Assembly: GCA_038869515.1 (NCBI GenBank)
Contig: JAWCQZ010000001.1
Coordinates: 242,534 to 306,533 of the forward strand
Origin: Halobacteria archaeon
Lineage (GTDB): Archaea > Halobacteriota > Syntropharchaeia > JACQPP01
Direction: 5' to 3'
DNA length: 64,000 nucleotides
Shown here: piece after piece, positions 5,210-59,051 of the stretch
Layout of the letters: each line of letters begins with the position of its first letter
How positions within the stretch are numbered: position 1 is the first letter of the stretch
The notes under the pieces: model-generated
Database searches by the model: none
Seen by the model: only the letters and a program-made list of their open reading frames with translations
Told to the model about the DNA's origin: nothing
Translations under genes and position numbers: made by a program

Positions 5210-5911
5210 ATGGCCCTCAACTACCGCGCCTGGGTGGCCGAGTCCATCGCCGTCTTCGCCCTCGTCTTCTTCGGGACCATGGCCGTCACCGGCGCCATTG
5301 ACCTCCTCGGCAACAAGACCGCCCCCGACGCGGGGGGCCTCTGGGTCATCTCCATCGCCCACGGCCTCGCCATCATGCTGATGGCCTTCGCAACGGGCCA
5401 CATCTCCGGGGGCCACATCAACCCCGCCGTGACAGTGGCGATGATGGCGACGAAGAGGCTCGACGCGAAGAACGGCGCCGGATACATCCTGTTCCAATTG
5501 ATCGGCGCCACGGTCGCCGCCGCGCTCCACGCCGCCATCCTCCCCGCCTCCCAGTTCCCGCACACGGGGGCCCACGGCCTCAACGCGGCCATCGGCGTCA
5601 CTCCGGCGACGGGCTTCCTGGTGGAAGTCGCCCTCACCTTCTTCCTCCTCTTCGTCATCTTCGCCACCGCCGTGGATCCCCGGGCCCCGGCGGGCTTCGC
5701 GCCCCTCGCCATCGGCCTCACCATCTGCATGATCCACCTCGTCGGGGTTCCCCTCACGGGGGCCTCGGTGAACCCCGCCCGCACCTTCGGGCCGGCGCTG
5801 GTCTTCGGGGCGTGGGGCGACCACTGGCTCTACTGGGCGGGCCCCATCCTCGGGGGGCTCATCGCAGCCCTCCTCTACGACCGGGTCTTCCTGAAGAAGA
5901 CGGGCGCCTAG
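5210..5911 (+). CDS. aquaporin / MIP-family channel (copy 1)
   Basis: Two NPA boxes (GGHINPAVT and GASVNPART) and six predicted TM segments. Confidence 0.85.
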   Translation: MALNYRAWVAESIAVFALVFFGTMAVTGAIDLLGNKTAPDAGGLWVISIAHGLAIMLMAFATGHISGGHINPAVTVAMMATKRLDAKNGAGYILFQLIGATVAAALHAAILPASQFPHTGAHGLNAAIGVTPATGFLVEVALTFFLLFVIFATAVDPRAPAGFAPLAIGLTICMIHLVGVPLTGASVNPARTFGPALVFGAWGDHWLYWAGPILGGLIAALLYDRVFLKKTGA

Positions 5912-7047
5912 GGCGCCCCCGCGCGCTCCGGGGACCCCTCACGGTCGGGGGTGTACCACCGCTGGGCGACGAGGGTCGGCACGATGGCGGTGAGGAGGAC
6001 CGCGGTCACCAGCACGCTGAACTGCTCGCGGCTGACGATTCCCGCCTGGAGGCCGTAGGTGGAGGAGATGGTGCCGAAGGTCAGGCCGGTGCTCATGAGA
6101 AGTGTGGCGTAGATGGCGTCTTTCGGGAGGTAGCGCCGTGCGAGGGGGAGGACCCCGGCGAACTTGGCCCCGACCTTCACCCCGAAGAGGAGCCCGAGGA
6201 GGCCGAGGTTGGCCGCGACCGCGGCGAGGGAGACGTTGAGCCCCGCGTGCAAGAAGAAGAAGGGGGTGAGGAGGGCGAAGGTGAGCCCCCGGAGGCGCAG
6301 GAGGACGCCCCGGTGGCCCTGGAAGGTCCGGGCGGCGATGAGACCCACCACGTAGGCCGGGAGGACTCCGTGGGACCCCCCGACCTCGGCAGAGAGGCCG
6401 AGCAGCAGGACCATGAGGAGGAGCATCTTCAACTCCATCTGGCCGACCCCCTCCCGGAACCGGGAGAGGAACCAGTCGAGGAGCCGGGGCACGGCGACCA
6501 CCGAGACCCCCAGGCCCGCGAATGTCAGGAGGATGAGCCCGTTGGGCGGAATGAACAGGACGCTGAGCGCAACGGCGGTTCCCAGATCGGTCACGAAGCA
6601 GGAGGAGAGGATGAGCTTTCCCGCCGGGGTGGAGGTGAGCCCCGTCTCCACCAGGACCACGTAGACGACGGCGACTGAGGTCGTGGAGAGGGCCACCCCT
6701 GCCAGAAGGGACGCGGCGCGGGTCCATCCGAGAAATCCCTCAGAGAACCACCACGCTCCCAGAAAGGGGGCACCGAAGGAGGCGACGCCGATGAGGGTGC
6801 TTGCCTTCCAGCGGGCCCGGAAGGCGTCGGGGTCGATCTCGGCCCCGGCCAGGAAGGTGAGGAAGAGCGAACCGAGCCCGGCCAGGAAGGGGAGCCAGTC
6901 GTGGCCTGCGGGGGAGAGGCCCGGGACGCTCCCGAGGAGCATCCCCATGACGATTTCGGCGATGGCGACCGAGACCCCCAGCCGGAAAGAGACGAACGAG
7001 GCGGCCAGGGCCGCGGCCAGAAGGGCGATGAGGTAGGGGTCGATCAT
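5908..7047 (-). CDS. cation:proton antiporter (CPA2/Kef-type membrane domain)
   Basis: About 12 TM helices, Gly-rich helices typical of the Na+/H+ exchanger family. No C-terminal TrkA domain. Confidence 0.7.
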   Translation of the reverse strand: MIDPYLIALLAAALAASFVSFRLGVSVAIAEIVMGMLLGSVPGLSPAGHDWLPFLAGLGSLFLTFLAGAEIDPDAFRARWKASTLIGVASFGAPFLGAWWFSEGFLGWTRAASLLAGVALSTTSVAVVYVVLVETGLTSTPAGKLILSSCFVTDLGTAVALSVLFIPPNGLILLTFAGLGVSVVAVPRLLDWFLSRFREGVGQMELKMLLLMVLLLGLSAEVGGSHGVLPAYVVGLIAARTFQGHRGVLLRLRGLTFALLTPFFFLHAGLNVSLAAVAANLGLLGLLFGVKVGAKFAGVLPLARRYLPKDAIYATLLMSTGLTFGTISSTYGLQAGIVSREQFSVLVTAVLLTAIVPTLVAQRWYTPDREGSPERAGAP

Positions 7048-7172
7048 GGGGTTCGCCTGGCGGGGGGGTAGGAGCTATCAGCCCCAGGCGGGGCGGTTGG
7101 CGGCGAGCCCCATCGCCTGGGCCCCCCGTGGGCCGCTGGAAATATAAATTCTGCGCGCAGAAGCCCCGCGTC

Positions 7173-7908: not shown

Positions 7909-9576
7909 ATGGCCTCGCAACCCCGTCGCGAGCCGTCCCCTGCTTCGCACGGGACTGCCCGGTCGGCTCCACCACCCGCCGCCTCCCCGCGCCGCGTCGA
8001 GCCGGCATTCGAAATCCTCGCCAAGGACATGGCGGGCCGCTTCGGCAGGCTCGAGACCCCTCACGGCGTTCTGGAGACCCCCGCCCTCTTCCCGGTGGTG
8101 AATCCCCACATCCCCCTCCTTCCTCTCTCTCGAATCCAGGAGTGCGGGGCCAAGGCCCTCATCACCAACGCATCCATCCTTTTCAAGGACCCGGAGTTGC
8201 GGGCCCGGGCCGAGACGGAGGGGGTCCACCGGCTTCTCGGGTTCGACGGGCCCGTGATGACCGACTCGGGGGCCTTCCAACTCTCGCGCTACGGCGACGC
8301 CGGGGTGACCAACGCCGAGATTGTCGGGTTCCAGAGGCGCATCGGCGTGGACATCGCGGTTCCCCTCGACCTCCCCACGCCCCCGGACGCCCCCGCGGAA
8401 GAGGCGGCCCGCCAGTGGGACGGGACCCTCGCCCGCATTCGCGAGGCCAAGGAGCTCTGGGACGATGGGCCCGGCTTGCTGGCGATGCCGGTCCAGGGTG
8501 GGCTCCACCCCGCCCTGCGGCGCAAAGCCGGTGAAGCGGTGGCGGCCCTCGGCCCCGGGGTCGCGCCCGTCGGCGCCGTCGTCCCGCTGATGGAATCCCA
8601 GCGCTACGCCGACCTGGTGGACGTGGTGGTGGCCGCGAAGCAGGGCCTCGGCCCCGGAGTCCCGGTCCACCTCTTCGGCGCGGGCCACCCGGCCACCTTC
8701 CCGCTGGCCGCGGCCCTCGGGTGCGACCTCTTCGACTCCGCCTCCTACGCCCTCTACGCCAAGGAGAGGCGCTACATGACGCCGACCGGGACGCTCCGCC
8801 TCGACGAGGTGCGGGAGCTGCCGTGCGCCTGCCCGGTCTGCGCCTCCCGCGGGCCCGGGGACCTCGACGGGGCGCTGCTGGCGGAGCACAACCTGCGGGC
8901 GACCCTCGCGGCGGTCCGGGAGGTGCGGCAGGCGATCCGCTCCCACGCCCTGCCCGACCTGGTGGAGATGCGCTGCCGGAGCCACCCCGCCCTCCTGGCG
9001 GGCTACCGGAGGCTCCTGGAGGAGCACGGCGACTGGCTGGAGCGGAACCACCCGAACGGTCCCGAGCCCTTCCACCACCGGGGCCCCGAGTCGGCCCTCC
9101 GGCCCGAGATCCGGCGACACCTCCGCTCGATGGCCCGGTGGCCCCTGAAGGGGCACATCCTGGTGACCTGCTTTCCAACCGAAGCGGGGGGAGGGGTCAA
9201 GCGGGCGCCACCTGCGGCTGCGCCCGGCAGCGAAGAGCAGAGCGAGACCCGCAACGCGACCCCGCTCCACAGCGGAAGACGAACGTCGCGGGCCGAGAGG
9301 GGGGCTTCGCCCCGCTCCCCGGGTCCTTCGTTCGACCGCGTCCTGACTCTCAAGCCCCTCTTCGGCCCCGTTCCCCCGGAGCTGGAGGAGAGCGCCCCCG
9401 CGGGCCAGGCCCTTCTCCTGGAGGATCGGGAGTCGTGGCGGGCGGCCCTGGAGAGCCTCTGGGCCCTCATGGAGGCGCGGCCCGAGGTGCGGTGGACCAT
9501 CCACGGGCCCGCCTCCTGGGAGCCGGCGTGGGTGGAGAGGCTCGAGGGGCGCGCGGAGGTGGTCCTGCGTGGCTAG
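7909..9576 (+). CDS. tgtA: archaeosine tRNA-guanine transglycosylase
   Basis: FEILAKDMAGRFGRLETPHGVLETPALFPVVNP, TIM-barrel TGT motifs, zinc site CACPVCA. The C-terminal 120 aa are compositionally odd. Confidence 0.8.
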   Translation: MASQPRREPSPASHGTARSAPPPAASPRRVEPAFEILAKDMAGRFGRLETPHGVLETPALFPVVNPHIPLLPLSRIQECGAKALITNASILFKDPELRARAETEGVHRLLGFDGPVMTDSGAFQLSRYGDAGVTNAEIVGFQRRIGVDIAVPLDLPTPPDAPAEEAARQWDGTLARIREAKELWDDGPGLLAMPVQGGLHPALRRKAGEAVAALGPGVAPVGAVVPLMESQRYADLVDVVVAAKQGLGPGVPVHLFGAGHPATFPLAAALGCDLFDSASYALYAKERRYMTPTGTLRLDEVRELPCACPVCASRGPGDLDGALLAEHNLRATLAAVREVRQAIRSHALPDLVEMRCRSHPALLAGYRRLLEEHGDWLERNHPNGPEPFHHRGPESALRPEIRRHLRSMARWPLKGHILVTCFPTEAGGGVKRAPPAAAPGSEEQSETRNATPLHSGRRTSRAERGASPRSPGPSFDRVLTLKPLFGPVPPELEESAPAGQALLLEDRESWRAALESLWALMEARPEVRWTIHGPASWEPAWVERLEGRAEVVLRG

Positions 9577-11296
9577 GCCGCCGCCGGCGTTCGAGGTGGT
9601 GCGGAGGGACGGCCCCGCCCGCCTCGGGAGGCTCCGCCTCGACGGGACCTCGCTCCCCACTCCGGGCATCCTCCCGGTCTCCCGGACCCCCTGGATGGGG
9701 GAGTTCCGGCGCCGCTGGCAGTTCCGCGGCGAGGAGGCCTTCGAAGCCGGAGGGCTCCGGGTCTCCACCTCCCCCCGGGCCGAGGCCGACCTCTACCTCC
9801 TCCCCAAGTCGCGGGCCCTGGAGGGGCGCCCGCGGAGGTTCATGGAGGGGGTGGCGGAGTTCCGGGAGGCGGTCGGCCCGGACGGGGCGCTCTACCTGCC
9901 GGCCCTCGCCACGCCCGCGAACGCCGCGCTCCTCGCCTACGCGGGCGTCGACCTGGTGGACGATGTCCAGCCGCTCCTCGCGGCCCGCCAGGGGCTCTAC
10001 ATGACGCCGGCCGGCAGCCGCCCCCTCGGCGGGATGGAGGAGATGCCCTGCCCCTGCGACGCCTGTCGCCGGGGGGAGGGGGTTCGCGTAGGCGACGGCC
10101 CCCTCCCCCCGCCCACAGGCCCGCCCCCCGCCCCCCCCTCAAGGATGGACGCCGAGGCCCTGGCGCGCCACAATACGACCGCCCTGGAGATGGAGCTGCG
10201 GGCCGCGCGCGCCGAAATCCGCCGGGGGCGGATGCGGGAGCGCGCCGAGGAGCGGGTCCGGGCCGAGGCGTGGCAGGTGGCGGCCCTGAGGAACTTCGAC
10301 GCCCAGGGGAGCTACCTGGAGCGGAGGAGCCCGGTGAGCCGGGAGGCGCGCCTCGACGCCAACTCCATGGAGTCGCTCTTCAGGCCCGAGGTCCGCCGGT
10401 TCGCCGCGCGGGTCCGGGAGCGGTTCACCCCCGCGCCGGGACCCTGGGTCCTCCTCCCCTGCTCCGCCCGGAAGCCCTACTCCAACTCCCAGAGCCACCG
10501 GAGGTTCCGGCGCGCCCTGGAGCCGTGGCGCGGCTCCCTGCAGGAGGTGGTCCTGACCTCGCCCCTCGGGGTCGTCCCGCGGGAGCTGGAGCGGACCTAC
10601 CCGGCGGCCCACTACGAGACGCCGGTGACCGGAAGGTGGGACGGGGAGGAGCGCCTGTGGCTCCAGGAGTGCCTTCGGCCGCTCCTCGAGAAACACCGCC
10701 CCCCGCTCCTCTTCATCCACATCCCCGGGACGCCCGGGGAGGTGGCGCGGGAGGAGGGGCGGAGGCTCGGAATCGAGACCGTCGAGACCGCCGGGGCCGA
10801 CCCGGCCGGCGACGCGGCCCTCCAGGCGCTCCACAACGCGGTCGCCTCGGCGGGCCTCCCGAGGGCGCCCCACCGCCTCGGGCGCCACCTCCGGGCCGTG
10901 GCCGATTTCCAACTCGGCCCGGGGGCGGGGGAGCTCCTGATGAAGCACGGGAAGCCCACGATGCGGGGCGCGCGGTCGGGGCCCCCGGTGGCTGCGATCC
11001 GGAGCGTGGCGACGCTGACCCCGTCGGGGCTCCTCGCCCTCACCCTGAAGGGGGCCCGCGCCCTCGCCGGCGCGAGGTGGCCCGGACTGCGGGTCGAGAT
11101 CGACGACTTCCTCCCCACCGGCTCGGTCCTCGCCCCGGGGGTGACCCGGGCCGACGAAGCCCTCCGGCCGGGCGACGAGGCGGTCTTCGAGGGGCCCCGC
11201 GCCTTCGGGGTCGGGAAGGCCGCCATGGCGGGGTGGGAGATGGAGCGCGCCCGCCGGGGGGTCGCGATCCGGGTCCGGGAAGTGGAGCCGAAATAG
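9569..11296 (+). CDS. arcS: archaeosine synthase ArcS (TGT-like N-domain plus C-terminal PUA)
   Basis: N-terminal TGT-like FEVVRRDGPARLGRLRLDGTSLPTPGILPV, Cys cluster CPCDACRRG, C-terminal PUA-like segment (VEIDDFLPTGSVLAPGVTRADEALRPGDEAVFEG). Overlaps the tgtA 3' end by 8 nt. Confidence 0.75.
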   Translation: MARPPPAFEVVRRDGPARLGRLRLDGTSLPTPGILPVSRTPWMGEFRRRWQFRGEEAFEAGGLRVSTSPRAEADLYLLPKSRALEGRPRRFMEGVAEFREAVGPDGALYLPALATPANAALLAYAGVDLVDDVQPLLAARQGLYMTPAGSRPLGGMEEMPCPCDACRRGEGVRVGDGPLPPPTGPPPAPPSRMDAEALARHNTTALEMELRAARAEIRRGRMRERAEERVRAEAWQVAALRNFDAQGSYLERRSPVSREARLDANSMESLFRPEVRRFAARVRERFTPAPGPWVLLPCSARKPYSNSQSHRRFRRALEPWRGSLQEVVLTSPLGVVPRELERTYPAAHYETPVTGRWDGEERLWLQECLRPLLEKHRPPLLFIHIPGTPGEVAREEGRRLGIETVETAGADPAGDAALQALHNAVASAGLPRAPHRLGRHLRAVADFQLGPGAGELLMKHGKPTMRGARSGPPVAAIRSVATLTPSGLLALTLKGARALAGARWPGLRVEIDDFLPTGSVLAPGVTRADEALRPGDEAVFEGPRAFGVGKAAMAGWEMERARRGVAIRVREVEPK

Positions 11297-12142: not shown

Positions 12143-12236
12143 GGGACCCATGAGACCCCCCGCCGGGTATAAAGTTTCAGAGGCGGGGGGACGGAAACGG
12201 TTAAAATTGGGGCGGCGACCTCCCCCGCGGCCACCC

Positions 12237-12590
12237 ATGGAGGAGCCCCGTCTCGACGCCCTCGAACATCGAATCCGGGCCCTGGAGGCCCGCCTCCGCG
12301 CAGTGGAGGGGCGCCTCTCCTCCTCCCTCGGAGGGGCGATCGAGGGGGCCCCGCCGGGTCCCGGGGAGGCCCCGCAGGGCGCGGACGGGGAGGCGCTGCG
12401 GGAGCGGCTCCAGGGGCTGGGGGAGAGGGTCTACGCCCTGGAGGCCCACGCCCCCGCGCGGATGGCCGAAGCGCTCCTGCGGGTCGAGGCGCGCCTGGCG
12501 GAGCTGGAGCGCTCCCGGGCGGAGGCGGCCGCGGCCCCTGCTCCCCCGGCGGGGGGGCGCTCCCGGGGCCGGGGTCTCCGGCTCCTCTAG
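12237..12590 (+). CDS. hypothetical coiled-coil protein, 2 nt upstream of the E1 gene
   Basis: Ala/Leu/Arg/Glu-rich heptad-like repeats (LEHRIRALEARLRAVEGRL...LRVEARLAELERSRAEAAAA). Stop is 2 nt before the E1 ATG. Could be a spurious high-GC ORF. Confidence 0.35.
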   Translation: MEEPRLDALEHRIRALEARLRAVEGRLSSSLGGAIEGAPPGPGEAPQGADGEALRERLQGLGERVYALEAHAPARMAEALLRVEARLAELERSRAEAAAAPAPPAGGRSRGRGLRLL

Positions 12591-12592
12591 CC

Positions 12593-13669
12593 ATGGCCGG
12601 GAGGGGGGGACGCTACGACCGCCTCCGCGCCCTCGCGGGGTACGACCGGGAGCGTCTCGCCTCCTCGACCTTCCTCGTGGCCGGGGTCGGCGCCCTCGGC
12701 AACGAGGTGGCGAAGGACCTCGCCCTCCTCGGCGCGGGGCGGCTCCTCCTGGTGGACTTCGACCGGGTCGAGCCCTCCAACCTCTCCCGCTCGCTCCTCT
12801 TCCGGGAGGCGGACGTCGGGCTCCCGAAGGTCCGGGCGGCCGCGCGCGCCCTGCGCAACATCAACCCCGGAGCCGAAGTGGAGGCGGTCGAGGGGGACCT
12901 CCGGTGGGACCTCGGCCTCGGGACCCTCCGCCGCTGCGCCGTGGCCTTCGGGTGCCTGGACAACCGGGAGGCGCGCCTCGCCCTCAACCGCATGTGCCGC
13001 TCTGCGGGGGTCCCGTGGGTGAACGGGGGGCTCGACGGCTGGGACGGCGTGGTCGAGCTCTACCCGCCCCGGGGCGCCTGCTACGAGTGCTCCTTCACCG
13101 GGGCTGACTACGCGGCGGTCGCGGAGCGCTACTCCTGCCCGGCCCGTCCGCCGGCAGCGGGAGGCGTCCCCACCGCCCCCACTGCGGCCGCCATCGTGGG
13201 CGGGATGGCGGTCGAGGCGGGGCTCTTCGCCCTCCCGCGCGAGGCGGAGGCGCTCTACTACCGCGGCGGAGAGGTGGTCCGCTCCCGCCTCCAGCGGAGG
13301 CCCGGCTGCCCCGCCCACCATGCCCCGGGGCCGGTGAAGAGGTCGGGCCTGACGCCGGAGAGCCGGGTCCGGGAGTTGCTGGCGGCCCATCCGGGGACCC
13401 TCTTCCTCGACCGGGAGGTGGTCACCGCCCTCCGCTGCCTCTGCGGGCGGGGCCGGCGCCTCCGGGTCCCGCGCCTCCGGATGGACGGCGCCCTCCGCTG
13501 CCGGTGCGGCCGGGAGATGGCTTCCGAGACGGTGCGACGGGTCGGGACGGGGGACCCGCTGGCGGAGCGCTCCCTGAAGGAGTTGGGAATCCCGCCGGGC
13601 CATATCGTCGAGGTGGCCCGGGGGAACCGGTCCGTGTTCGTGGAGTTGAAGGAGGGCCGCCGTGGGTAA
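12593..13669 (+). CDS. E1-like ubiquitin-like-protein activating enzyme (ThiF/MoeB/UbaA family) with a Cys-rich C-terminal extension
   Basis: Rossmann nucleotide motif FLVAGVGALGNEVAKDLALLGAGRLLLVDFDRVEPSNLSRSLLF, a CxxC pair (CYEC), a crossover-loop Cys (YSCPARP), then about 100 extra residues containing CLCG...CRCG. Confidence 0.85.
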   Translation: MAGRGGRYDRLRALAGYDRERLASSTFLVAGVGALGNEVAKDLALLGAGRLLLVDFDRVEPSNLSRSLLFREADVGLPKVRAAARALRNINPGAEVEAVEGDLRWDLGLGTLRRCAVAFGCLDNREARLALNRMCRSAGVPWVNGGLDGWDGVVELYPPRGACYECSFTGADYAAVAERYSCPARPPAAGGVPTAPTAAAIVGGMAVEAGLFALPREAEALYYRGGEVVRSRLQRRPGCPAHHAPGPVKRSGLTPESRVRELLAAHPGTLFLDREVVTALRCLCGRGRRLRVPRLRMDGALRCRCGREMASETVRRVGTGDPLAERSLKELGIPPGHIVEVARGNRSVFVELKEGRRG

Positions 13670-14444
13670 ACTGGTCGTCGAGGTCGTGGACCACACCGCC
13701 TCCCGGCGGCGGAAGGCGGAGATTCCCGACTCGATGACCGCGGAGCGCGTCCTCGCAACGCTCGTGGAGAAAATGGGACTCCCCGCGGCGGACCCGGCGG
13801 GCCAGCCCATCACCTACCACCTCGACCACAAGCAGTCGGGCAAGAGGCTGAGGCCGGACCAGACCCTCAAGCAGGCGGGGGTCCAGAACGGCGACGTGCT
13901 GCGGGTCTTCCCGCGCATCGAGGCTGGCGCACCCTCCGGCGGACCCTCACCGCGCCTGCGCCGCCTGAAGAACGAGAGGCTCCGGCTGGGACGGCTCCGC
14001 TCCCCCCTCGTCACTTTCCGGACCGGGGGGGACCCGCCCGACGAGTACCGGGTGGAGTTTCTCTGCACGGGGCTGGCGAAGTCGGACGGAAAGATGGAGA
14101 GGCGAGGGCGCCACGAGGCGCACATCCTCCTTCCCGCCGACTACCCCGTGCGGCCTCCGGAGGTCCGGTGGCTCACGCCGCTGTTCCATCCCAACATCCT
14201 CGGGAGCGACCACCCCTACCACCCGGGAAAGGTCTGCCTCGGCCCCTGGACGCCCGCCCAGTTTTTGGACGACGTCGTGGTCCGCCTCGCCGAGATGGTG
14301 CAGTTCAAGGACTACGGCCTCCAGAGCCCGCTGAACCCCGAGGCCGCCGTGTGGGCGAAGGAGCACGAGGCGGAACTGCCGGTGGACCCGAGGGAGGTCC
14401 GGGAGCCCCAGGCGCGGGGGGAGGACATCGCGATTCTGGAGTAG
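13662..14444 (+). CDS. ubiquitin-like beta-grasp domain fused to a ubiquitin-conjugating enzyme E2 (UBC) domain
   Basis: GTG start overlapping the E1 stop. N-terminal about 95 aa has a ubiquitin-like pattern (KLVVEVVD...ITYHLDHKQSGKRLRPDQTLKQAGVQNGDVLRVFPRIEAGAPSGG). C-terminal about 150 aa has UBC hallmarks: DYPVRPPEVRWLTPLFHPNILGSDHPYHPGKVCLGPWTPAQ (HPN plus catalytic Cys) and SPLNPEAA. Confidence 0.8.
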   Translation: MGKLVVEVVDHTASRRRKAEIPDSMTAERVLATLVEKMGLPAADPAGQPITYHLDHKQSGKRLRPDQTLKQAGVQNGDVLRVFPRIEAGAPSGGPSPRLRRLKNERLRLGRLRSPLVTFRTGGDPPDEYRVEFLCTGLAKSDGKMERRGRHEAHILLPADYPVRPPEVRWLTPLFHPNILGSDHPYHPGKVCLGPWTPAQFLDDVVVRLAEMVQFKDYGLQSPLNPEAAVWAKEHEAELPVDPREVREPQARGEDIAILE

Positions 14445-14466: not shown

Positions 14467-15327
14467 TCAGAAGATTGAAAATGATAATCCGTCCCCCATC
14501 CTTTCAAGGAACCCCTCCACCAACCTCGCCAGTTCCCCCGGCCTCTCCACCGACGGCAGGTGGCCGCACTCCTCGATGATTTCGAGCCGCGCCCCCGGGA
14601 TGGTCCGCGCGAGCCGCTCCCCGAGTTTCAGCGACACCAGTCTGTCCTGCCGCCCCCACACCACCAGCGTCGGGGCGCGGATTTCGGCCGCCCGCTTCCG
14701 GTAACTGGTCGCGATGACGTGCATCATCGAGTTGAACCGGGTCCGTCGCCGCGCCCGCTCCTTCGGGTCCTCCCGCAACGCGGCGGCCCGCGCCTTCATC
14801 TCCTCGATGCCGGGGCGGTGGTCGTGGAAGGCGCGCTTCATCATGGAGCGCCCGATGACCGGCTCGAGCGCCTTGTAGATGGCGAAGGCGAAGTCGCTGC
14901 GGGCGCGCCTCCGGGCGAACCCCCGGGGGCGCCACATGCCCCCGGAATCGACCAGGACGAGCGCCTCGACCCGCTCGGGCCACCGGAGGGTGAACTCCAT
15001 CGAGACCATCCCCCCCATCGAGGAGCCGACCGGGACCGCGCGTCGCACCCCGATGGAGTCGAGCAGTTGGAGCGCCGAGCGGGCGAAGAACTCCAGGGTG
15101 TAGTCGGTGACCGGCACCTCCGATTGCCCGTAGGAGGGCAGGTCCACCGCGACGCAGCGCCACTTCTTCGACAATCGCTCCACCACCGCGCTCCACTGCT
15201 CGTGGGTCGAGGCCCAGCCGTGGAGGAAGAGGAGGGCGTCGGCGTCGCGCGGCCCTTCATCCACGTATGCGAGCCGGAAGGGGGGTGGGCCCGGGAGGTC
15301 GGCGAATTTGACCTGGAACCCGGCCAC
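14467..15327 (-). CDS. alpha/beta-fold hydrolase
   Basis: LFLHGWAST...GSSMGGMV nucleophile elbow (GxSxG) and C-terminal His region (ECGHLPSVE). Confidence 0.75.
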   Translation of the reverse strand: MAGFQVKFADLPGPPPFRLAYVDEGPRDADALLFLHGWASTHEQWSAVVERLSKKWRCVAVDLPSYGQSEVPVTDYTLEFFARSALQLLDSIGVRRAVPVGSSMGGMVSMEFTLRWPERVEALVLVDSGGMWRPRGFARRRARSDFAFAIYKALEPVIGRSMMKRAFHDHRPGIEEMKARAAALREDPKERARRRTRFNSMMHVIATSYRKRAAEIRAPTLVVWGRQDRLVSLKLGERLARTIPGARLEIIEECGHLPSVERPGELARLVEGFLERMGDGLSFSIF

Positions 15328-15960
15328 TTACACGCCTCGCCGGTCGCCCCAAAGAATCTTGTGCAATTGCAGCCCGTAGCGCGCCCCGGGGAACTCCGTC
15401 TTCACCCGTTCCGCGAATTCGAACTTCGAGTAGCAGTCCTTCTGCAGAATCAGGTTCGGGAGGTGGGCCCACTCCTTGGCGAAGGCGAGGTCCTCCGGCC
15501 CGCTCACCACGATTTTGAACTGGACCTTGGACCCGTGCTCGCGGAGGATGCGGCCGACGGCTTCCCGGTTGGGCGCGACGCCGCTGCTCGGCCCCTTGAC
15601 GTCGCAGGAGACGAAATCCACGGCCGTCATCACTTCGGGCTCGAAGTATTGTCCGCTCGTCTCGAGGCAGACCCAGTAGCCCCGCTCCTTCAGGAGCCGG
15701 ACCAGCCTCCGGATGTCCTGCTCGAGAGGCTCGCCGCCGGTGATGGAGACCCGCCGGCAGGGGAAGGCGGCCACGCGCCCCAGGACCTCCTCCTCGGTGA
15801 GGGCCGCCGAGCCCTTCGCCCTCTCGGGCCAGGTGTACTTGGTGTCGCACCAGGAGCAGCCGACCCTGCACCCCTGGAGCCGGATGAAGACCTGGGGGAG
15901 GCCCATGTGAAGCCCTTCGCCCTCCAGGCTGTGGAAAATCTCCGAAATCCGCAGGGCCAT
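15328..15960 (-). CDS. queE: 7-carboxy-7-deazaguanine synthase QueE (radical SAM)
   Basis: MALRISEIFHSLEGEGLHMGLPQVFIRLQGCRVGCSWCDTKYTW (CxxxCxxC). ATG overlaps the queC stop (ATGA). Confidence 0.8.
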   Translation of the reverse strand: MALRISEIFHSLEGEGLHMGLPQVFIRLQGCRVGCSWCDTKYTWPERAKGSAALTEEEVLGRVAAFPCRRVSITGGEPLEQDIRRLVRLLKERGYWVCLETSGQYFEPEVMTAVDFVSCDVKGPSSGVAPNREAVGRILREHGSKVQFKIVVSGPEDLAFAKEWAHLPNLILQKDCYSKFEFAERVKTEFPGARYGLQLHKILWGDRRGV

Positions 15961-16649
15961 CAGCGGCCCCTCCCGCTGGCCAGGAGCGGGTCCTCGACGC
16001 CCGCCTCCTCGAACCCCTTCGCCCGCAAGAGGCAGGAGTCGCAGCGGCCGCAGGGGCGCGCCCCCCCGGCGTAGCAGGACCAAGTGAGATGGAAAGGGAC
16101 GCCGAGGGCGAGCCCCCTCCGCACGATCTGGGCCTTCGTCATCCCGATGACCGGCGTCCAGATTCCGAGCGGCCTCCCCCCGGCGCCGCGCTTCGAGCCG
16201 AGGGCGATGGCCCGGGCCATGGCCCGGTAGTATTCGGGGCGGCAGTCGGGGTAGTGGGAGTAGTCCACCGCGTTCGCCCCCAGGACCAGCCGGTCGGCCG
16301 CCGCGACTTCGGCGCGGGCGGCGGCGAGCACCAGGAAGATGGTGTTCCGGAGGGGGACGTAGGTGCTCGGGATGCGCGGGTCGCGCAGGATCTCCCGCGC
16401 GCTCCGGCGGCGCTCCAGGGGGAGGCGGGCGGTGAGCGCGCTCCCGCCGATCTGCCGCAGGTCGACCCTCAGGACCCCGTGGCTCCGCGCCCCGAGGGCC
16501 CGCGCCACCGCCCGGGCCGACCGCAGCTCGCGCCGGTGGCGCTGGCCGTAGTCGAAGGAGAGGGCGTGGAGCTCGCCCCCCCGGGCGCGGGCGATGGCGG
16601 CCGCGACCGCCGAGTCCATGCCGCCCGAGAGGAGGCAGAGGGCCTTCAC
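15960..16649 (-). CDS. queC: 7-cyano-7-deazaguanine synthase QueC
   Basis: PP-loop LLSGGMDSAV plus C-terminal Cys cluster (CYAGGARPCGRCDSC). GTG start at 16649 inferred; the upstream part of the long ORF is Arg/Pro-rich junk. Confidence 0.75.
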   Translation of the reverse strand: MKALCLLSGGMDSAVAAAIARARGGELHALSFDYGQRHRRELRSARAVARALGARSHGVLRVDLRQIGGSALTARLPLERRRSAREILRDPRIPSTYVPLRNTIFLVLAAARAEVAAADRLVLGANAVDYSHYPDCRPEYYRAMARAIALGSKRGAGGRPLGIWTPVIGMTKAQIVRRGLALGVPFHLTWSCYAGGARPCGRCDSCLLRAKGFEEAGVEDPLLASGRGR

Positions 16650-23663: not shown

Positions 23664-24476
23664 TCAGCGGATGTAGTCGGGGGAGGGGGGAGCGCCCCCG
23701 GGCCCCTCCGGCTGGGCGCGCTTCAGCAACTGCTCGATCATCTTCCGCTCCATCGCCTGCCGCTCCGCCGCGGCCTTCTCCTGGCTCTTGATGCGCTTCT
23801 CCAGCCCCTTCAGGTCGAGCGAGAGGCCGAGCCACTTCGCGGCCACCTCCAGGACCGCCCGCGCGGCCCTGGGGTCCTCCGTCTGGGGGGTCGAGGACTC
23901 CCCGAGGAGGCAGGCCCCCGCGAGGGAGCGCTGCGCCGCGATGCCGAGGACGAGGCCGTTCAGGCCGGTGATGGAGCCCTCCCTCATGACTTGGACCCCG
24001 ATTTGCTTGAGTTCCCCGAGGGTCTTGGGATCGGTCGCCACCGCCCAGACCCGAGGGTCCTCCACGGGCCGCTCCAGGATGTAGGCCGCGGTGGCGACGA
24101 GCCGCGCCGCCCCCAGGCGCAGGGCCAGGCCGAGGACCGCCTCGGCAATCTCGTAGTGCGCCCGGACAGCCCCGGGGTTGGAGTTCTCCGGCTGGGTGTT
24201 GCCGGTGTAGATGATGAGGTCGGGGTCGCCCTTCCAGTAGTAGAGTTCGTTCTGGGTCGCCTCCACCATGCCGTCGTGGCAGACGATGTAGGGGGGGAAG
24301 GCGGGGGAGAGGAGGCGCAGGAAGGGCCTGGCCCCGAGCTGCTCGACGAGGTATTCGGCCGAGAGTTTCGCCACGTGGCCCATCCCCGGCAGCCCCACCA
24401 GGAGGGTGGGCGCCTTCAACCTGGGTTCGGGGGCGAGGGCCTGGAAAAAGAGGTTGGGTCCCGCCCGCTCCAGCAT
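23664..24476 (-). CDS. PAC2-family proteasome assembly chaperone (PbaA/PbaB-like)
   Basis: N-terminal LLVGLPGMGHVAKLSAEYLVEQLGA motif and overall PAC2 (COG1938) layout with a C-terminal helical tail. Confidence 0.7.
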   Translation of the reverse strand: MLERAGPNLFFQALAPEPRLKAPTLLVGLPGMGHVAKLSAEYLVEQLGARPFLRLLSPAFPPYIVCHDGMVEATQNELYYWKGDPDLIIYTGNTQPENSNPGAVRAHYEIAEAVLGLALRLGAARLVATAAYILERPVEDPRVWAVATDPKTLGELKQIGVQVMREGSITGLNGLVLGIAAQRSLAGACLLGESSTPQTEDPRAARAVLEVAAKWLGLSLDLKGLEKRIKSQEKAAAERQAMERKMIEQLLKRAQPEGPGGAPPSPDYIR

Positions 24477-32180: not shown

Positions 32181-32582
32181 TCAAATGAAGAGGAAGACCT
32201 CGGCCCCCTGGGCGCGGTCGAGGAAGGCGGCGGTCCCGAGGACCTCGTCCGCCACCTTTCGCGCCTCCGCCTCCGTGACCCCGAACAGTTTCATCGAGGT
32301 CGAGCAGGCGTAGACCGTGACCGGCCCGATCGACTTCGCGTCCTCCAGCATCTTCCGGAGGGGCGGGAGGCGCGCCTCCTTGCGCCCCCGCTCCAGCTCC
32401 TCGCGGCGGGCCGCCGCGTAGGCCGGGACATCCACCCGGTCGGCATCTTCCTTGGCCAGCCGCCGGAGGGCCCAGAAGGAGAGGAAGATGTGGACCTCGA
32501 ACCCCATCGCCGCCCCCGACGCGGCCAGCGCGACCGTCTGGTAGAGGTGGTCGTAGGTCCCGGAGTGGGCGAAGAGCGCCAT
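32181..32582 (-). CDS. DsrE/DsrF-like sulfur-relay family protein
   Basis: MALFAHSGTYDHLYQTVALAASGAAMGFEVHIFLSFWAL...VYACSTSMKLFG...AEVFLFI: DsrE-like fold signature. Start set at the internal ATG. Confidence 0.6.
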   Translation of the reverse strand: MALFAHSGTYDHLYQTVALAASGAAMGFEVHIFLSFWALRRLAKEDADRVDVPAYAAARREELERGRKEARLPPLRKMLEDAKSIGPVTVYACSTSMKLFGVTEAEARKVADEVLGTAAFLDRAQGAEVFLFI

Positions 32583-32738
32583 CTTGCGCGCGGGGTGGTC
32601 CACCGCCTCGCGGCTCCGGGTCACCTGGGCCGTCGCCATCGAGGGACTAGGGGGAGGAGGTCCCATCTTTAACTTGTTCCGAAGATGGAGCGAACGTCCG
32701 CTCCCGCTCTCCCTTCGAACCCTTCACCCCCGCCTCGG

Positions 32739-32978
32739 CTATGCCTTTTTGATCCAGAAGGTCAGGCGGTCCCCGTCGGCCCCCATCCCCAGGTAGTCGT
32801 TGCCCGTCCTGCGGCACCAGGCGGGCACATCCTCCTTCGCGGCGGGGTCGTCGGCCAGCAGTTCGACCACCTTCCCCCCCTCCACCTCGCGGACCCTCTC
32901 CGCCAGCATCACGATCGGCACAGGGCACATGTAGCCGAGCGCGTCCACGGTCTCGTCCGGTCTCGGGCGCGGCGCCAT
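32739..32978 (-). CDS. tusA: TusA-like sulfurtransferase
   Basis: DALGYMCPVPIVM CPxP motif; about 80 aa. Confidence 0.8.
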   Translation of the reverse strand: MAPRPRPDETVDALGYMCPVPIVMLAERVREVEGGKVVELLADDPAAKEDVPAWCRRTGNDYLGMGADGDRLTFWIKKA

Positions 32979-58391: not shown

Positions 58392-59051
58392 TCAGGAGAG
58401 GCGGTCCCGGACGCGCCGGATCGCCTCTTCGGGGACGACCTCGACGGTCCCGGAGGTGACCTTGACGGCCTCGATGCCCTCCCCCGACGCCGCGTCCCGC
58501 TTCATGGCGGCGTGGAGGGCCTGGACGGCGAGGGCGACGCCGTCGTCGAGGCTCATGTCCTTCTTGAAATGCTCCTCGAGGACGCCGTAGGCGATGGGGC
58601 TGCCGCTGCCGGTGGAGACGATGGTCTTCTCGTCCAACTGCCCGCCGACGGCGTCGATGGAGTAGACCGCGGGCCCGGTCCGGTCCACGCCGCCCGCGAG
58701 CAGTTGCACGTAGTAGGGGAAGTAGCGGTTCCCGTTGAGAATGTTGGCGAGGAGGCTCGACATGGCCCGGACCGACATCGGTTCGCCGCGGCGGAGGCGG
58801 TAGAGGCGCGCCTCGACGGCGACGATGCGGGCGAGGGTCTGGGCGTCCCCCACGAGACCCGCGGTGGTGAGGGCCATCCGGTCGTCCACGGTGTAGATTT
58901 TCTTGGCGCTCTTCGAGGCGATGAAGTGGCCCATGGTGGCCCGCCTCTCGCTCGCCAGGACCACGCCGTCCTTGCAGACGAGGCCGACGGTGGTGGTGCC
59001 GTGGTAGAGCTGCTGCTTCAGGTTCTCCAGGTCGGGTTTGGCGACTTCCAT
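58392..59051 (-). CDS. psmB: proteasome beta subunit
   Basis: Propeptide then HGTTTVGLVCKDGVVLASERRAT (Thr1 after processing). Confidence 0.85.
   Translation of the reverse strand: MEVAKPDLENLKQQLYHGTTTVGLVCKDGVVLASERRATMGHFIASKSAKKIYTVDDRMALTTAGLVGDAQTLARIVAVEARLYRLRRGEPMSVRAMSSLLANILNGNRYFPYYVQLLAGGVDRTGPAVYSIDAVGGQLDEKTIVSTGSGSPIAYGVLEEHFKKDMSLDDGVALAVQALHAAMKRDAASGEGIEAVKVTSGTVEVVPEEAIRRVRDRLS

Follow-up and report, generated by a model that had tools for sequence, protein, structure and literature searches.

A predicted ubiquitin-like conjugation module built on a Ubl-E2 fusion in a Halobacteria-labelled archaeon

Layout of the locus

Here, we describe a compact set of genes predicted to encode a ubiquitin-like conjugation pathway, which lies in a 64-kb stretch of archaeal DNA (the window, meaning the whole stretch that was analysed) from a genome labelled 'Halobacteria archaeon' by NCBI (assembly GCA_038869515.1, contig JAWCQZ010000001.1, positions 242,534 to 306,533). 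The window has a GC content of ~72%, and that of the module is the same as that of its flanks. The two catalytic genes are both on the + strand, namely a gene for an activating enzyme (E1) of 358 aa at 12593-13669 and, overlapping it by 8 nt (GTGGGTAA), a gene with a GTG start at 13662-14444, the 260-aa product of which unites a ubiquitin-like protein (Ubl) with a conjugating enzyme (E2). These open reading frames (ORFs) and their overlap are as a preliminary description of the same DNA had given them.

The E1 gene is preceded by one for a small, lysine-free coiled-coil protein of 117 aa (12237-12590, +), which ends 2 nt before the E1 start and is probably co-transcribed with it. The same gene is present in three archaeal genomes, that of the window and those of two relatives (L004, 8515-8868; L100, 7006-7335), with 2-5 nt between its stop and the start of the E1, and its product keeps a core, GERVYALEAHAPARMAEALLRVEARL, and the C-terminus RGLRLL in all three. 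It matches DUF7310 at 26.9 bits, under the cut-off of 40, and it is absent from the bacterial and Methanoperedens relatives examined. A TATA-like AT-rich box (TTAAAATT, 12201-12208, +), ~30 nt upstream of the coiled-coil ATG, is a putative promoter and, as read from the sequence, is the sole AT-rich box on the + strand from rpl7ae to the stop codon of the Ubl-E2 gene; since no other such element comes before that stop, the coiled-coil, E1 and Ubl-E2 genes probably form a single three-gene operon.

The E1 protein

The E1 combines a ThiF-type adenylation domain, a crossover loop with Cys182 and a C-terminal domain (~248-358) that is rich in cysteine and in beta structure. Its match to Pfam ThiF is well over the cut-off (5e-45; 153.9 bits against 28.1), and across 44 full-length homologs the GxGxxG motif, C163xxC166, S181-C182 and C239xxH242 are invariant, as are the catalytic and nucleotide-binding residues G31/G33/G36, D55, D57, N63, R66, K79 and R128, the pairs C163/C166 and C239/H242 being the zinc ligands; the ThiF-type E1 with a nucleotide motif, a CxxC pair and a crossover-loop cysteine that had been proposed is thus confirmed. 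Cys182, encoded at 13136-13138 (+) within an 'RYSC' motif, is the candidate thioester cysteine. In the AlphaFold2 (AF2) model, which has a predicted local distance difference test (pLDDT) score of 89.5, this residue opens the only disordered loop (residues 181-190), and its position and behaviour match those of an E1 crossover loop, suggesting a catalytic role.

The C-terminal domain (residues 248-358; 13334-13666, +) is kept in all full-length homologs as a unit of ~110 residues, made up of a Cys-rich ribbon (CxC...CxC) and a beta-rich 'LGIPP' unit, and may be a ubiquitin-fold domain (UFD) that recruits the E2. Foldseek returned UBA3 as the top match to the E1, and the longest alignments were to UBA3 and SAE2, both carriers of a UFD, but with a root-mean-square deviation of 11-15 Å, and because this is high the UFD identity is only a candidate one.

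The scores of the E1 against NCBIfam models fall far below the cut-offs for UbaA (89.5 against 450), ThiF (117.2 against 275.25), MoeB (99.7 against 266) and, likewise, MoeZ, and by these tests it is therefore not a sulfur-carrier E1; it has a single adenylation domain and no rhodanese domain. A profile comparison with the PDB placed UBA7 first (4e-53), with UBA1, UBA6 and SAE2 at 1e-44 to 1e-39 and MoeB/ThiF at 1e-38. The preliminary description had allowed that this might be simply a MoeB or ThiF protein with its partners elsewhere, and the NCBIfam scores, together with the E2, Ubl and JAB genes found beside the relatives of the E1, rule out a plain MoeB, ThiF or UbaA of that kind. Also rejected was a reading of the E1 C-terminus, '...RRG', as the tail of a fused Ubl, the terminal Gly not being kept outside the close lineage.

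The Ubl-E2 fusion protein

A protein identical to the fusion, from assembly GCA_038869095.1, is annotated merely as an 'EsaB/YukD family protein'. For the fusion, 82 homologs went into the AF2 model, the mean pLDDT of which is 91.8. Its first 89 residues (13662-13928, +) make up a YukD-type Ubl ending in Arg-Ile-Glu-Ala-Gly: residues 12-81 match Pfam YukD (1.7e-13; 51.6 bits, cut-off 27), the model has a beta-grasp at residues 3-85 in a strand-strand-helix-strand-strand pattern, and free Ubl homologs match the domain at 1e-22 to 1e-30. A variable Gly/Pro/Ser linker, APSGGPS (residues 90-96; 13929-13949, +), follows, over which the pLDDT dips to 73-75.

The E2 domain, at residues 97-245 (13950-14396, +), has a UBC fold, the core of which spans residues 97-234 in the model. 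It matches Pfam UQ_con (PF00179) over residues 149-237 (4.4e-10; 39.8 bits, cut-off 27), its profile finds Ubc13 as the best match in the PDB (3.5e-17), and Foldseek places UbcH5, Ubc13 and Rad6 at the top with a probability of 1.0 and template modelling (TM) scores of 0.64-0.71 as normalised to whole target chains. DYPVRPP, the HPN tripeptide at residues 176-178 (14187-14195), HPGKVC192LGPW with Cys192 (14235-14237) and SPLNPEAA are all present, and across 82 sequences no change is seen at H176, P177, N178 or C192; Cys192 is predicted to be the catalytic cysteine of a canonical HPN/Cys E2. The preliminary description had named these four hallmarks, had seen an E2 fused to an N-terminal beta-grasp, and had suggested profile searches and structure prediction of the 260-aa protein as the check. 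Both Pfam matches are over their cut-offs and both folds are modelled, so its reading stands, and the outcome that it set against this reading, a non-UBC family with an HPN-Cys region that is not conserved, was not what we found.

Relative to canonical E2s, there is a 6-residue insertion (GSDHPY...) between the HPN and Cys192 (residues 179-191, window 14196-14234), which P0005 also has; a similar one is found in the Methanoperedens locus described below (L019), in its second E2. The C-terminal tail (residues 246-260 and the stop codon; 14397-14444, +) ends EDIAILE and includes a strand at 257-259 in the AF2 model. It is reminiscent of a SUMO-interacting motif (SIM) of the type that binds a beta-grasp. 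Hydrophobic and acidic tails (IVILDD, ILFLD, IMILDDGL) recur in fused and unfused E2 homologs. A comparison with PHROGs gave no informative match.

The fusion junction and its origin

The junction of the window protein, ...VFPRIEAG-APSGGPS-PRLRRL..., reads as a Ubl C-terminus, a linker and an E2 N-terminus. Free Ubls of the same operon type end in EITAG or EIIAG directly before the stop codon, stand-alone E2s start with SPRLRRL, and Ala88-Gly89 of the fusion (codons GCT GGC, 13923-13928, +) aligns with the C-terminal Ala-Gly of the free Ubls. A weak ubiquitin match puts RIEAG in register with RLRGG, so that Gly89 corresponds to Gly76 of ubiquitin. Ala88-Gly89, the predicted site of cleavage and activation, is found without exception in the fusion-length homologs (67 of 67), and the positions after it vary; among four archaeal proteins that are 81-90% identical, indels occur only directly after Gly89, in the linker. 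The 'PSGG' of the linker was considered as the true di-Gly site and rejected, being absent from the three closest homologs where 'RIEAG' is invariant.

An E1 adenylates only a free C-terminal carboxylate. As encoded, Gly89 is internal, with 171 residues after it, and the fused Ubl, having no free C-terminus, cannot be activated unless it is cleaved, a point which the preliminary description overlooked and which turns the absence of a peptidase into this system's main problem. The linker and the region near the E2 N-terminus contain no in-frame ATG or GTG, which rules out an internal start from which the E2 could be translated by itself, so the E2 is always made fused. A decaying or frame-shifted artefact was ruled out as well, the fusion occurring in at least five independent assemblies with a ratio of non-synonymous to synonymous substitution rates (dN/dS) of 0.06-0.18.

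Such a fusion is easy to make. Unfused relatives share the gene order E1-Ubl-E2 with the window, and in Methanoperedens, which has this order, the stop codon of the Ubl, a 6-nt spacer and the ATG of the E2 share one frame, so that a single stop-codon loss would give the present arrangement. In a rough neighbour-joining tree of E2 domains, made without support values, one large bacterial clade is entirely fused and a second is mostly unfused with fusions arising in it several times; the nearest neighbours of the archaeal lineage are unfused E2s of this second clade. The tree and the one-frame arrangement together indicate that the fusion is recurrent.

Selection on the module

Pairwise Nei-Gojobori estimates among the three archaeal genomes, at a synonymous divergence (dS) of ~0.3-0.7, gave dN/dS values of 0.06-0.09 for the Ubl domain, 0.18 for the E2 domain, 0.28 for the E1 and ~0.31-0.34 for the coiled-coil gene. 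The module is under strong purifying selection and the Ubl domain is its most constrained part, as is expected for a modifier that has to fit several partners, and unlike a relic.

Related operons in bacteria and archaea

The architecture had at first been judged unusual, which did not survive a wider search. A word-indexed search returned only four full-length fusion matches, an artefact of its sensitivity, while an exhaustive phmmer search over 1.84 billion representatives found 2255 relatives, with ~20 end-to-end fusions among the best 150, and a profile search added ~60 further clusters of 280-315-aa fusions, many of them already annotated 'ubiquitin-conjugating enzyme E2'. Overall, the exhaustive and profile searches gave ~67 clusters of full-length bacterial Ubl-E2 fusions, of several origins, with sources that include Pyrinomonadaceae, Anaerolineae, Candidatus Magnetomorum and Candidatus Magnetoglobus, and a fused pre-protein is also part of the Type I Bub system (PMC11601596).

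Stand-alone relatives of the E2 are found in operons with a free YukD-type Ubl, an E1 of the same kind and JAB peptidases, and often also with a trypsin-like protease or a protein of the Prok-RING or FHA type. Alignment of the E1 against species-representative genomes matched at least 562 genomes, the full-length E1 homologs in such operons being 36-47% identical. Among the matches listed, Planctomycetota make up the great majority, the others including Chloroflexota, Clostridia and one cyanobacterium, and the sole archaeon among the best 80 of the at least 562 matches is a close relative of the window. Five component hidden Markov models (HMMs) were used to classify loci, and in the 55 that have at least 3 kb on either side of the E1 an E2 was present in 50, a JAB in 50, a Ubl in 46 and a Prok-RING in 33, with Ubl and E2 fused in three. 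The usual planctomycete order is Ubl-E2-(JAB)-E1-JAB-(E2)-RING; many of the planctomycete operons (L021-L099) are far richer than the archaeal one, with two JABs, an additional E2 and from one to three Prok-RING genes downstream of the E1.

Every bacterial fusion locus inspected has a linked JAB, and the JAB HMM also found one in the six other bacterial relatives examined. Three JAB genes without a precomputed Pfam match were recognised by the family HMM (L017, 7927-8625; L007, 11010-12077; L018, 7897-8571), L017 and L018 being fusion loci. The protein from L017 has 232 aa with GWFHTHPGFPPFLSEQD, and its JAMM motif and that of L007 are intact, that of L018 being degenerate (GWFHTHLFKGSERFGLSDLD). 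The surroundings of the operon in L007/L008 are a defence island, where GmrSD, an SLFN-like helicase and toxin-antitoxin pairs are encoded. The locus of Candidatus Methanoperedens (L019, 594-9572) consists of an unfused E1-Ubl-E2, then a WD40/PEGA/Prok-RING protein of 499 aa and a second E2 in convergent orientation, with genes for Cdc48 and HSP20 just upstream, and no linked JAB was found in it.

The window itself was scanned in six frames over 64 kb with HMMs from the related loci, phmmer and motif regular expressions, and contained no JAB, RING, second Ubl, second E2 or trypsin-like protease. Two matches to the JAMM expression lie in non-coding frames, and the window has no coding-like small ORF that ends in GG. 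The preliminary description had reported no JAB, RING or separate GG-ending small protein nearby, and this extends to the full window.

Judged from these comparisons of sequence, the module is a reduced archaeal member of a widespread, mainly planctomycete Ubl-E2-E1-JAB(-RING) operon family. It is set apart by the absence of both JAB and RING from the 64-kb window, by its archaeal host and by a lineage-specific coiled-coil gene; the parts and the fusion are unsurprising to a specialist, and the points that merit follow-up are the missing peptidase, the lineage of the host and the housekeeping surroundings. The planctomycete-type Ubl-E2-E1-JAB-RING operons are presumably those of Burroughs, Iyer and Aravind, who in 2011 (Mol Biosyst) reportedly gave a bioinformatic description of RING-associated prokaryotic ubiquitin-like operons. 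In the literature searched, we found no experimental characterisation of this large, planctomycete-centred family.

Comparison with known systems

The Ub/E1/E2/srfp/Rpn11 cluster of Caldiarchaeum subterraneum encodes a cascade that has been reconstituted biochemically (PMC5654768). Like this cluster and the planctomycete operons, the window encodes a Ubl, E2 and E1 together: the Ubl is a single-domain beta-grasp with a terminal Gly (in the window, Gly89), the E2 is an HPN/Cys UBC protein that matches UQ_con directly, and the E1 is a single-chain protein of the ThiF type that has a Cys in its crossover loop and a further domain at its C-terminus. Unlike them, the window module has neither a linked JAB/Rpn11 nor a RING, its Ubl is fused to the E2 and ends in Ala-Gly instead of Gly-Gly, its E1 is preceded by the coiled-coil gene, and its Halobacteria-labelled host belongs to neither the Aigarchaeota nor the Asgard archaea.

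The Type I Bub operon comprises BubAB, which is a Ubl-E2 fusion, BubCD, which is a JAB-E1 fusion, and BubE (PMC11601596, PMC11601603), and experiments have established that BubAB is a pre-protein, cleavage of which after the junction Gly yields an activatable Ubl (PMC11601596). The window protein likewise has an N-terminal Ubl and a C-terminal E2 in one chain with a conserved Gly at the junction. However, Bub works by oxyester chemistry, with a Ser as the catalytic residue of its E2, which is also without the UBC helices at the C-terminus, and with a crossover Tyr in its E1 (PMC11601596), whereas the HPN and Cys192 of the window E2 and Cys182 of its E1 are invariant. Together with the lack of a JAB domain on the E1 and of DUF6527/BubE in the Pfam annotation of the neighbouring genes, this rules out membership of Bub. 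Bil systems (BilABCD, Types I and II), which are antiphage ubiquitination systems (PMC10557695), share the Ubl, E2 and E1 functions, with a Ubl in which the Gly often becomes exposed only after pre-processing by a JAB, and with an E2 that works without an E3. Their E1, BilD, is a large IAD-AAD-CYS protein, unlike the 358-aa E1 with a single adenylation domain seen here, no BilC is present and the Ubl-E2 matches no PADLOC Bil model. The PADLOC matches of the E1, to the E1-E2 and BilD models, are weak, that to BilD being partial (8e-12), and membership of Bil was ruled out on these grounds.

Within archaea of the same broad lineage, the SAMP/UbaA system also pairs a Ubl with an E1, but sampylation uses no E2, the window Ubl is YukD-type and AG-ended, and the window E1 falls far under the UbaA cut-off, as given above. 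SAMPs are removed by an unlinked JAMM, HvJAMM1, as cited in PMC5654768. Eukaryotic ubiquitin precursors (Ub-L40, Ub-S27a and polyubiquitin) are N-terminal Ubl fusions too, in which a deubiquitinase (DUB) exposes the Gly and the modifier is co-produced stoichiometrically with its partner (PMC11354881). Unlike in those precursors, the partner in the window protein is the cognate E2.

Canonical E2-dependent Ubl conjugation in archaea has been shown for the Caldiarchaeum-type operon and is also reported in Asgard archaea, and to our knowledge haloarchaea and their relatives are known only for E2-less sampylation. The window locus and the unfused E1-Ubl-E2-RING locus of Methanoperedens show that a canonical HPN/Cys E2 system is also present in Halobacteria- and Methanoperedens-labelled lineages. 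The module has a stable place between genes for ribosomal proteins and for tRNA modification and is strongly selected. Having just two catalytic genes, it should be easy to reconstitute as a very small system, and it poses the sharp question of which enzyme frees the Ubl from the E2 where no JAB is linked.

A proposed pathway and its alternatives

We favour, with a probability of roughly 0.55, a reading in which these genes form a compact Ubl-conjugation module and the 260-aa product is a pre-protein that is cut after Gly89 and then feeds a cascade from E1 to E2 to target. In the pathway that we infer, its cleavage and thioester steps, peptidase, targets and biological role included, a trans-acting peptidase from outside the locus, most likely a JAMM/MPN+ metalloprotease encoded elsewhere in the genome, would cut after Ala88-Gly89, so that a Ubl of 89 aa (...EAG) and a canonical E2 (~165 aa) are released in equimolar amounts. 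The E1 would adenylate Gly89, load the Ubl on its crossover-loop Cys182 and recruit the E2, probably via its C-terminal domain, so that the Ubl could be passed to Cys192, and the E2 would move it onto lysines of the targets without a RING E3 encoded at the locus.

The pre-protein model is best supported, since Ala-Gly is invariant, the linker is variable and flexible, the domain is orthologous to AG-terminated free Ubls and no internal start is present. The analysis itself shows what the domains are, that the catalytic residues are conserved, that the junction is homologous to the ends of free Ubls and that purifying selection is strong. Maturation of this kind is also known from characterised systems: the pro-Ub of Caldiarchaeum is refractory to its E1 until a JAMM trims the extension, a JAMM that also cuts linear Ub-GFP (PMC5654768), BilC pre-processes BilA (PMC10557695), and in Bub it is the JAB domain of BubCD that cuts BubAB behind the conserved Gly (PMC11601596). 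Because archaeal JAMMs are reported to be broadly specific, HvJAMM1 being cited in this connection (PMC5654768), an unlinked archaeal JAMM is the obvious candidate for the peptidase.

Several observations weigh against this model and lend themselves to another, in which the fusion is never cleaved. Neither the 64-kb window nor ~20 kb of the relative L004/L020 holds a JAB or other recognisable DUB, so processing would have to depend on an enzyme from outside the locus, and archaeal L020 is the exception among the 50 well-flanked loci with an E2, the other 49 having a linked JAB. No Prok-RING_1 was found in the window by HMM or regular expression (best E-value 1.7), leaving no RING E3, and in a few distant fusions Ala-Ala replaces Ala-Gly at the junction. 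If the protein stayed whole, the beta-grasp would be a permanent domain of the E2, perhaps one that docks it non-covalently to the adenylation site of the E1 or regulates it, with the transferred Ubl encoded elsewhere (for example, a SAMP-like one) or with a function other than conjugation; the absence of a peptidase, which nearly all bacterial relatives have, and of a RING would then be natural, and the SIM-like strand of the E2 tail could bind the beta-grasp in cis. We regard this as unlikely, in view of the invariance of Ala-Gly in 67 of 67 homologs beside a freely varying linker and of the orthology of the domain to free AG-terminated Ubls from the same operon type. There is, moreover, no second Ubl in the 64 kb, the C-terminal domain of the E1 is kept in fused and unfused systems alike, from which it follows that a Ubl tether is not needed, and without an activatable Ubl the E1 would have no substrate in its operon.

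The remaining alternatives concern what the module does. It could be what is left, in reduced form, of a Bil-, Bub- or CBASS-like antiviral or conflict system, with the same chemistry directed at viral proteins, as the defence-island setting of L007/L008, the antiphage role of characterised bacterial E1/E2/Ubl/JAB operons (PMC10557695, PMC11601596) and the weak PADLOC matches of the E1 would suggest. We think it rather improbable, given that the Ubl-E2 has no PADLOC match, that the module sits between rpl7ae-rps28e-rpl24e and tRNA-modification genes, in a left-hand synteny kept in three genomes, with the same GC content as its flanks and no defence or mobile-element genes found in the 64 kb, and that the Methanoperedens relative adjoins Cdc48 and HSP20 genes. 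A sulfur-carrier pair in the style of Urm1, SAMP2 or TtuB, serving mainly tRNA modification with conjugation secondary, would suit the flanking TGT/ArcS-like (7909-11296) and QueE/QueC-like (15328-) genes, the TusA and DsrE genes 18 kb away and the frequent use of ThiF-family E1s in sulfur transfer. It is nonetheless highly improbable: an intact and selected HPN/Cys E2 is fused to the Ubl, the E1 lacks a rhodanese, scores far under the ThiF, MoeB, MoeZ and UbaA cut-offs and is closer by profile to eukaryotic conjugating E1s than to MoeB/ThiF, the right-hand tRNA genes are not kept in L004, and the relatives stand beside E2, JAB and RING genes, never beside sulfur-pathway genes. It is also possible, though doubtful, that the cascade is independent of any dedicated JAB or RING, with the Ubl-E2 matured by a non-JAB enzyme (the alpha/beta-hydrolase described below, or autoprocessing) or working uncleaved, and forming with the coiled-coil protein a minimal, constitutively encoded and E2-dependent machine for tagging proteins.

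Genomic neighbourhood

The 54 neighbouring genes have housekeeping functions only, according to Pfam annotation. They include translation genes (ribosomal proteins, eIF2-alpha and IleRS), replication and repair genes (RFC, FEN1 and XPF), a proteasome beta subunit, a PAC2-family gene, TGT/ArcS, QueC/QueE, TusA/DsrE and an M48 membrane peptidase, and no defence or mobile-element genes were found by this annotation in the window. The preliminary description had placed the module in housekeeping surroundings, away from any defence island, and had argued from this for a housekeeping conjugation role; the setting is as it said, but the role had position alone as its basis, and at least one relative lies in a defence island.

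To the left, TGT, ArcS, rpl24e-rps28e-rpl7ae, coiled-coil, E1 and Ubl-E2 are syntenic in the three archaeal genomes, TGT and an ArcS-like TGT/DUF5591/PUA protein of the archaeosine/preQ0 pathway being encoded at 7909-11296 (+) in the window. To the right, the module is followed by a convergent gene for an S33-type alpha/beta-hydrolase (14467-15327, -; Pfam Abhydrolase_1 6e-34, Hydrolase_4 2.4e-16), which adjoins the module in L004 too, though the genes further out differ. As a syntenic neighbour, it is a speculative candidate for the peptidase. Beyond it, the genomes diverge, and the pair of a QueE-like radical SAM protein and QueC (15328-16541, -) is not kept in L004. An extra 154-aa ORF without a Pfam match (10812-11276, +) lies between the Ubl-E2 and the alpha/beta-hydrolase in L004 and is absent from the window.

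Across 57 rough gene calls, the median predicted isoelectric point is ~9.2, a basic proteome, and the host, for all its NCBI label, is not a salt-in halophile. The PAC2-family proteasome assembly chaperone is encoded at 23664-24476 (-) and the proteasome beta subunit at 58392-59051 (-), and the sulfur-relay pair, ~18 kb from the module, consists of TusA (32739-32978, -) and a DsrE-like protein (32181-32666, -). Immediately upstream of a gene of the Na_H_Exchanger family (5908-7047, -), there is a fluoride riboswitch at 7062-7126 (-) that scores 47.8 bits with Rfam RF01734, for which the gathering score is 34.

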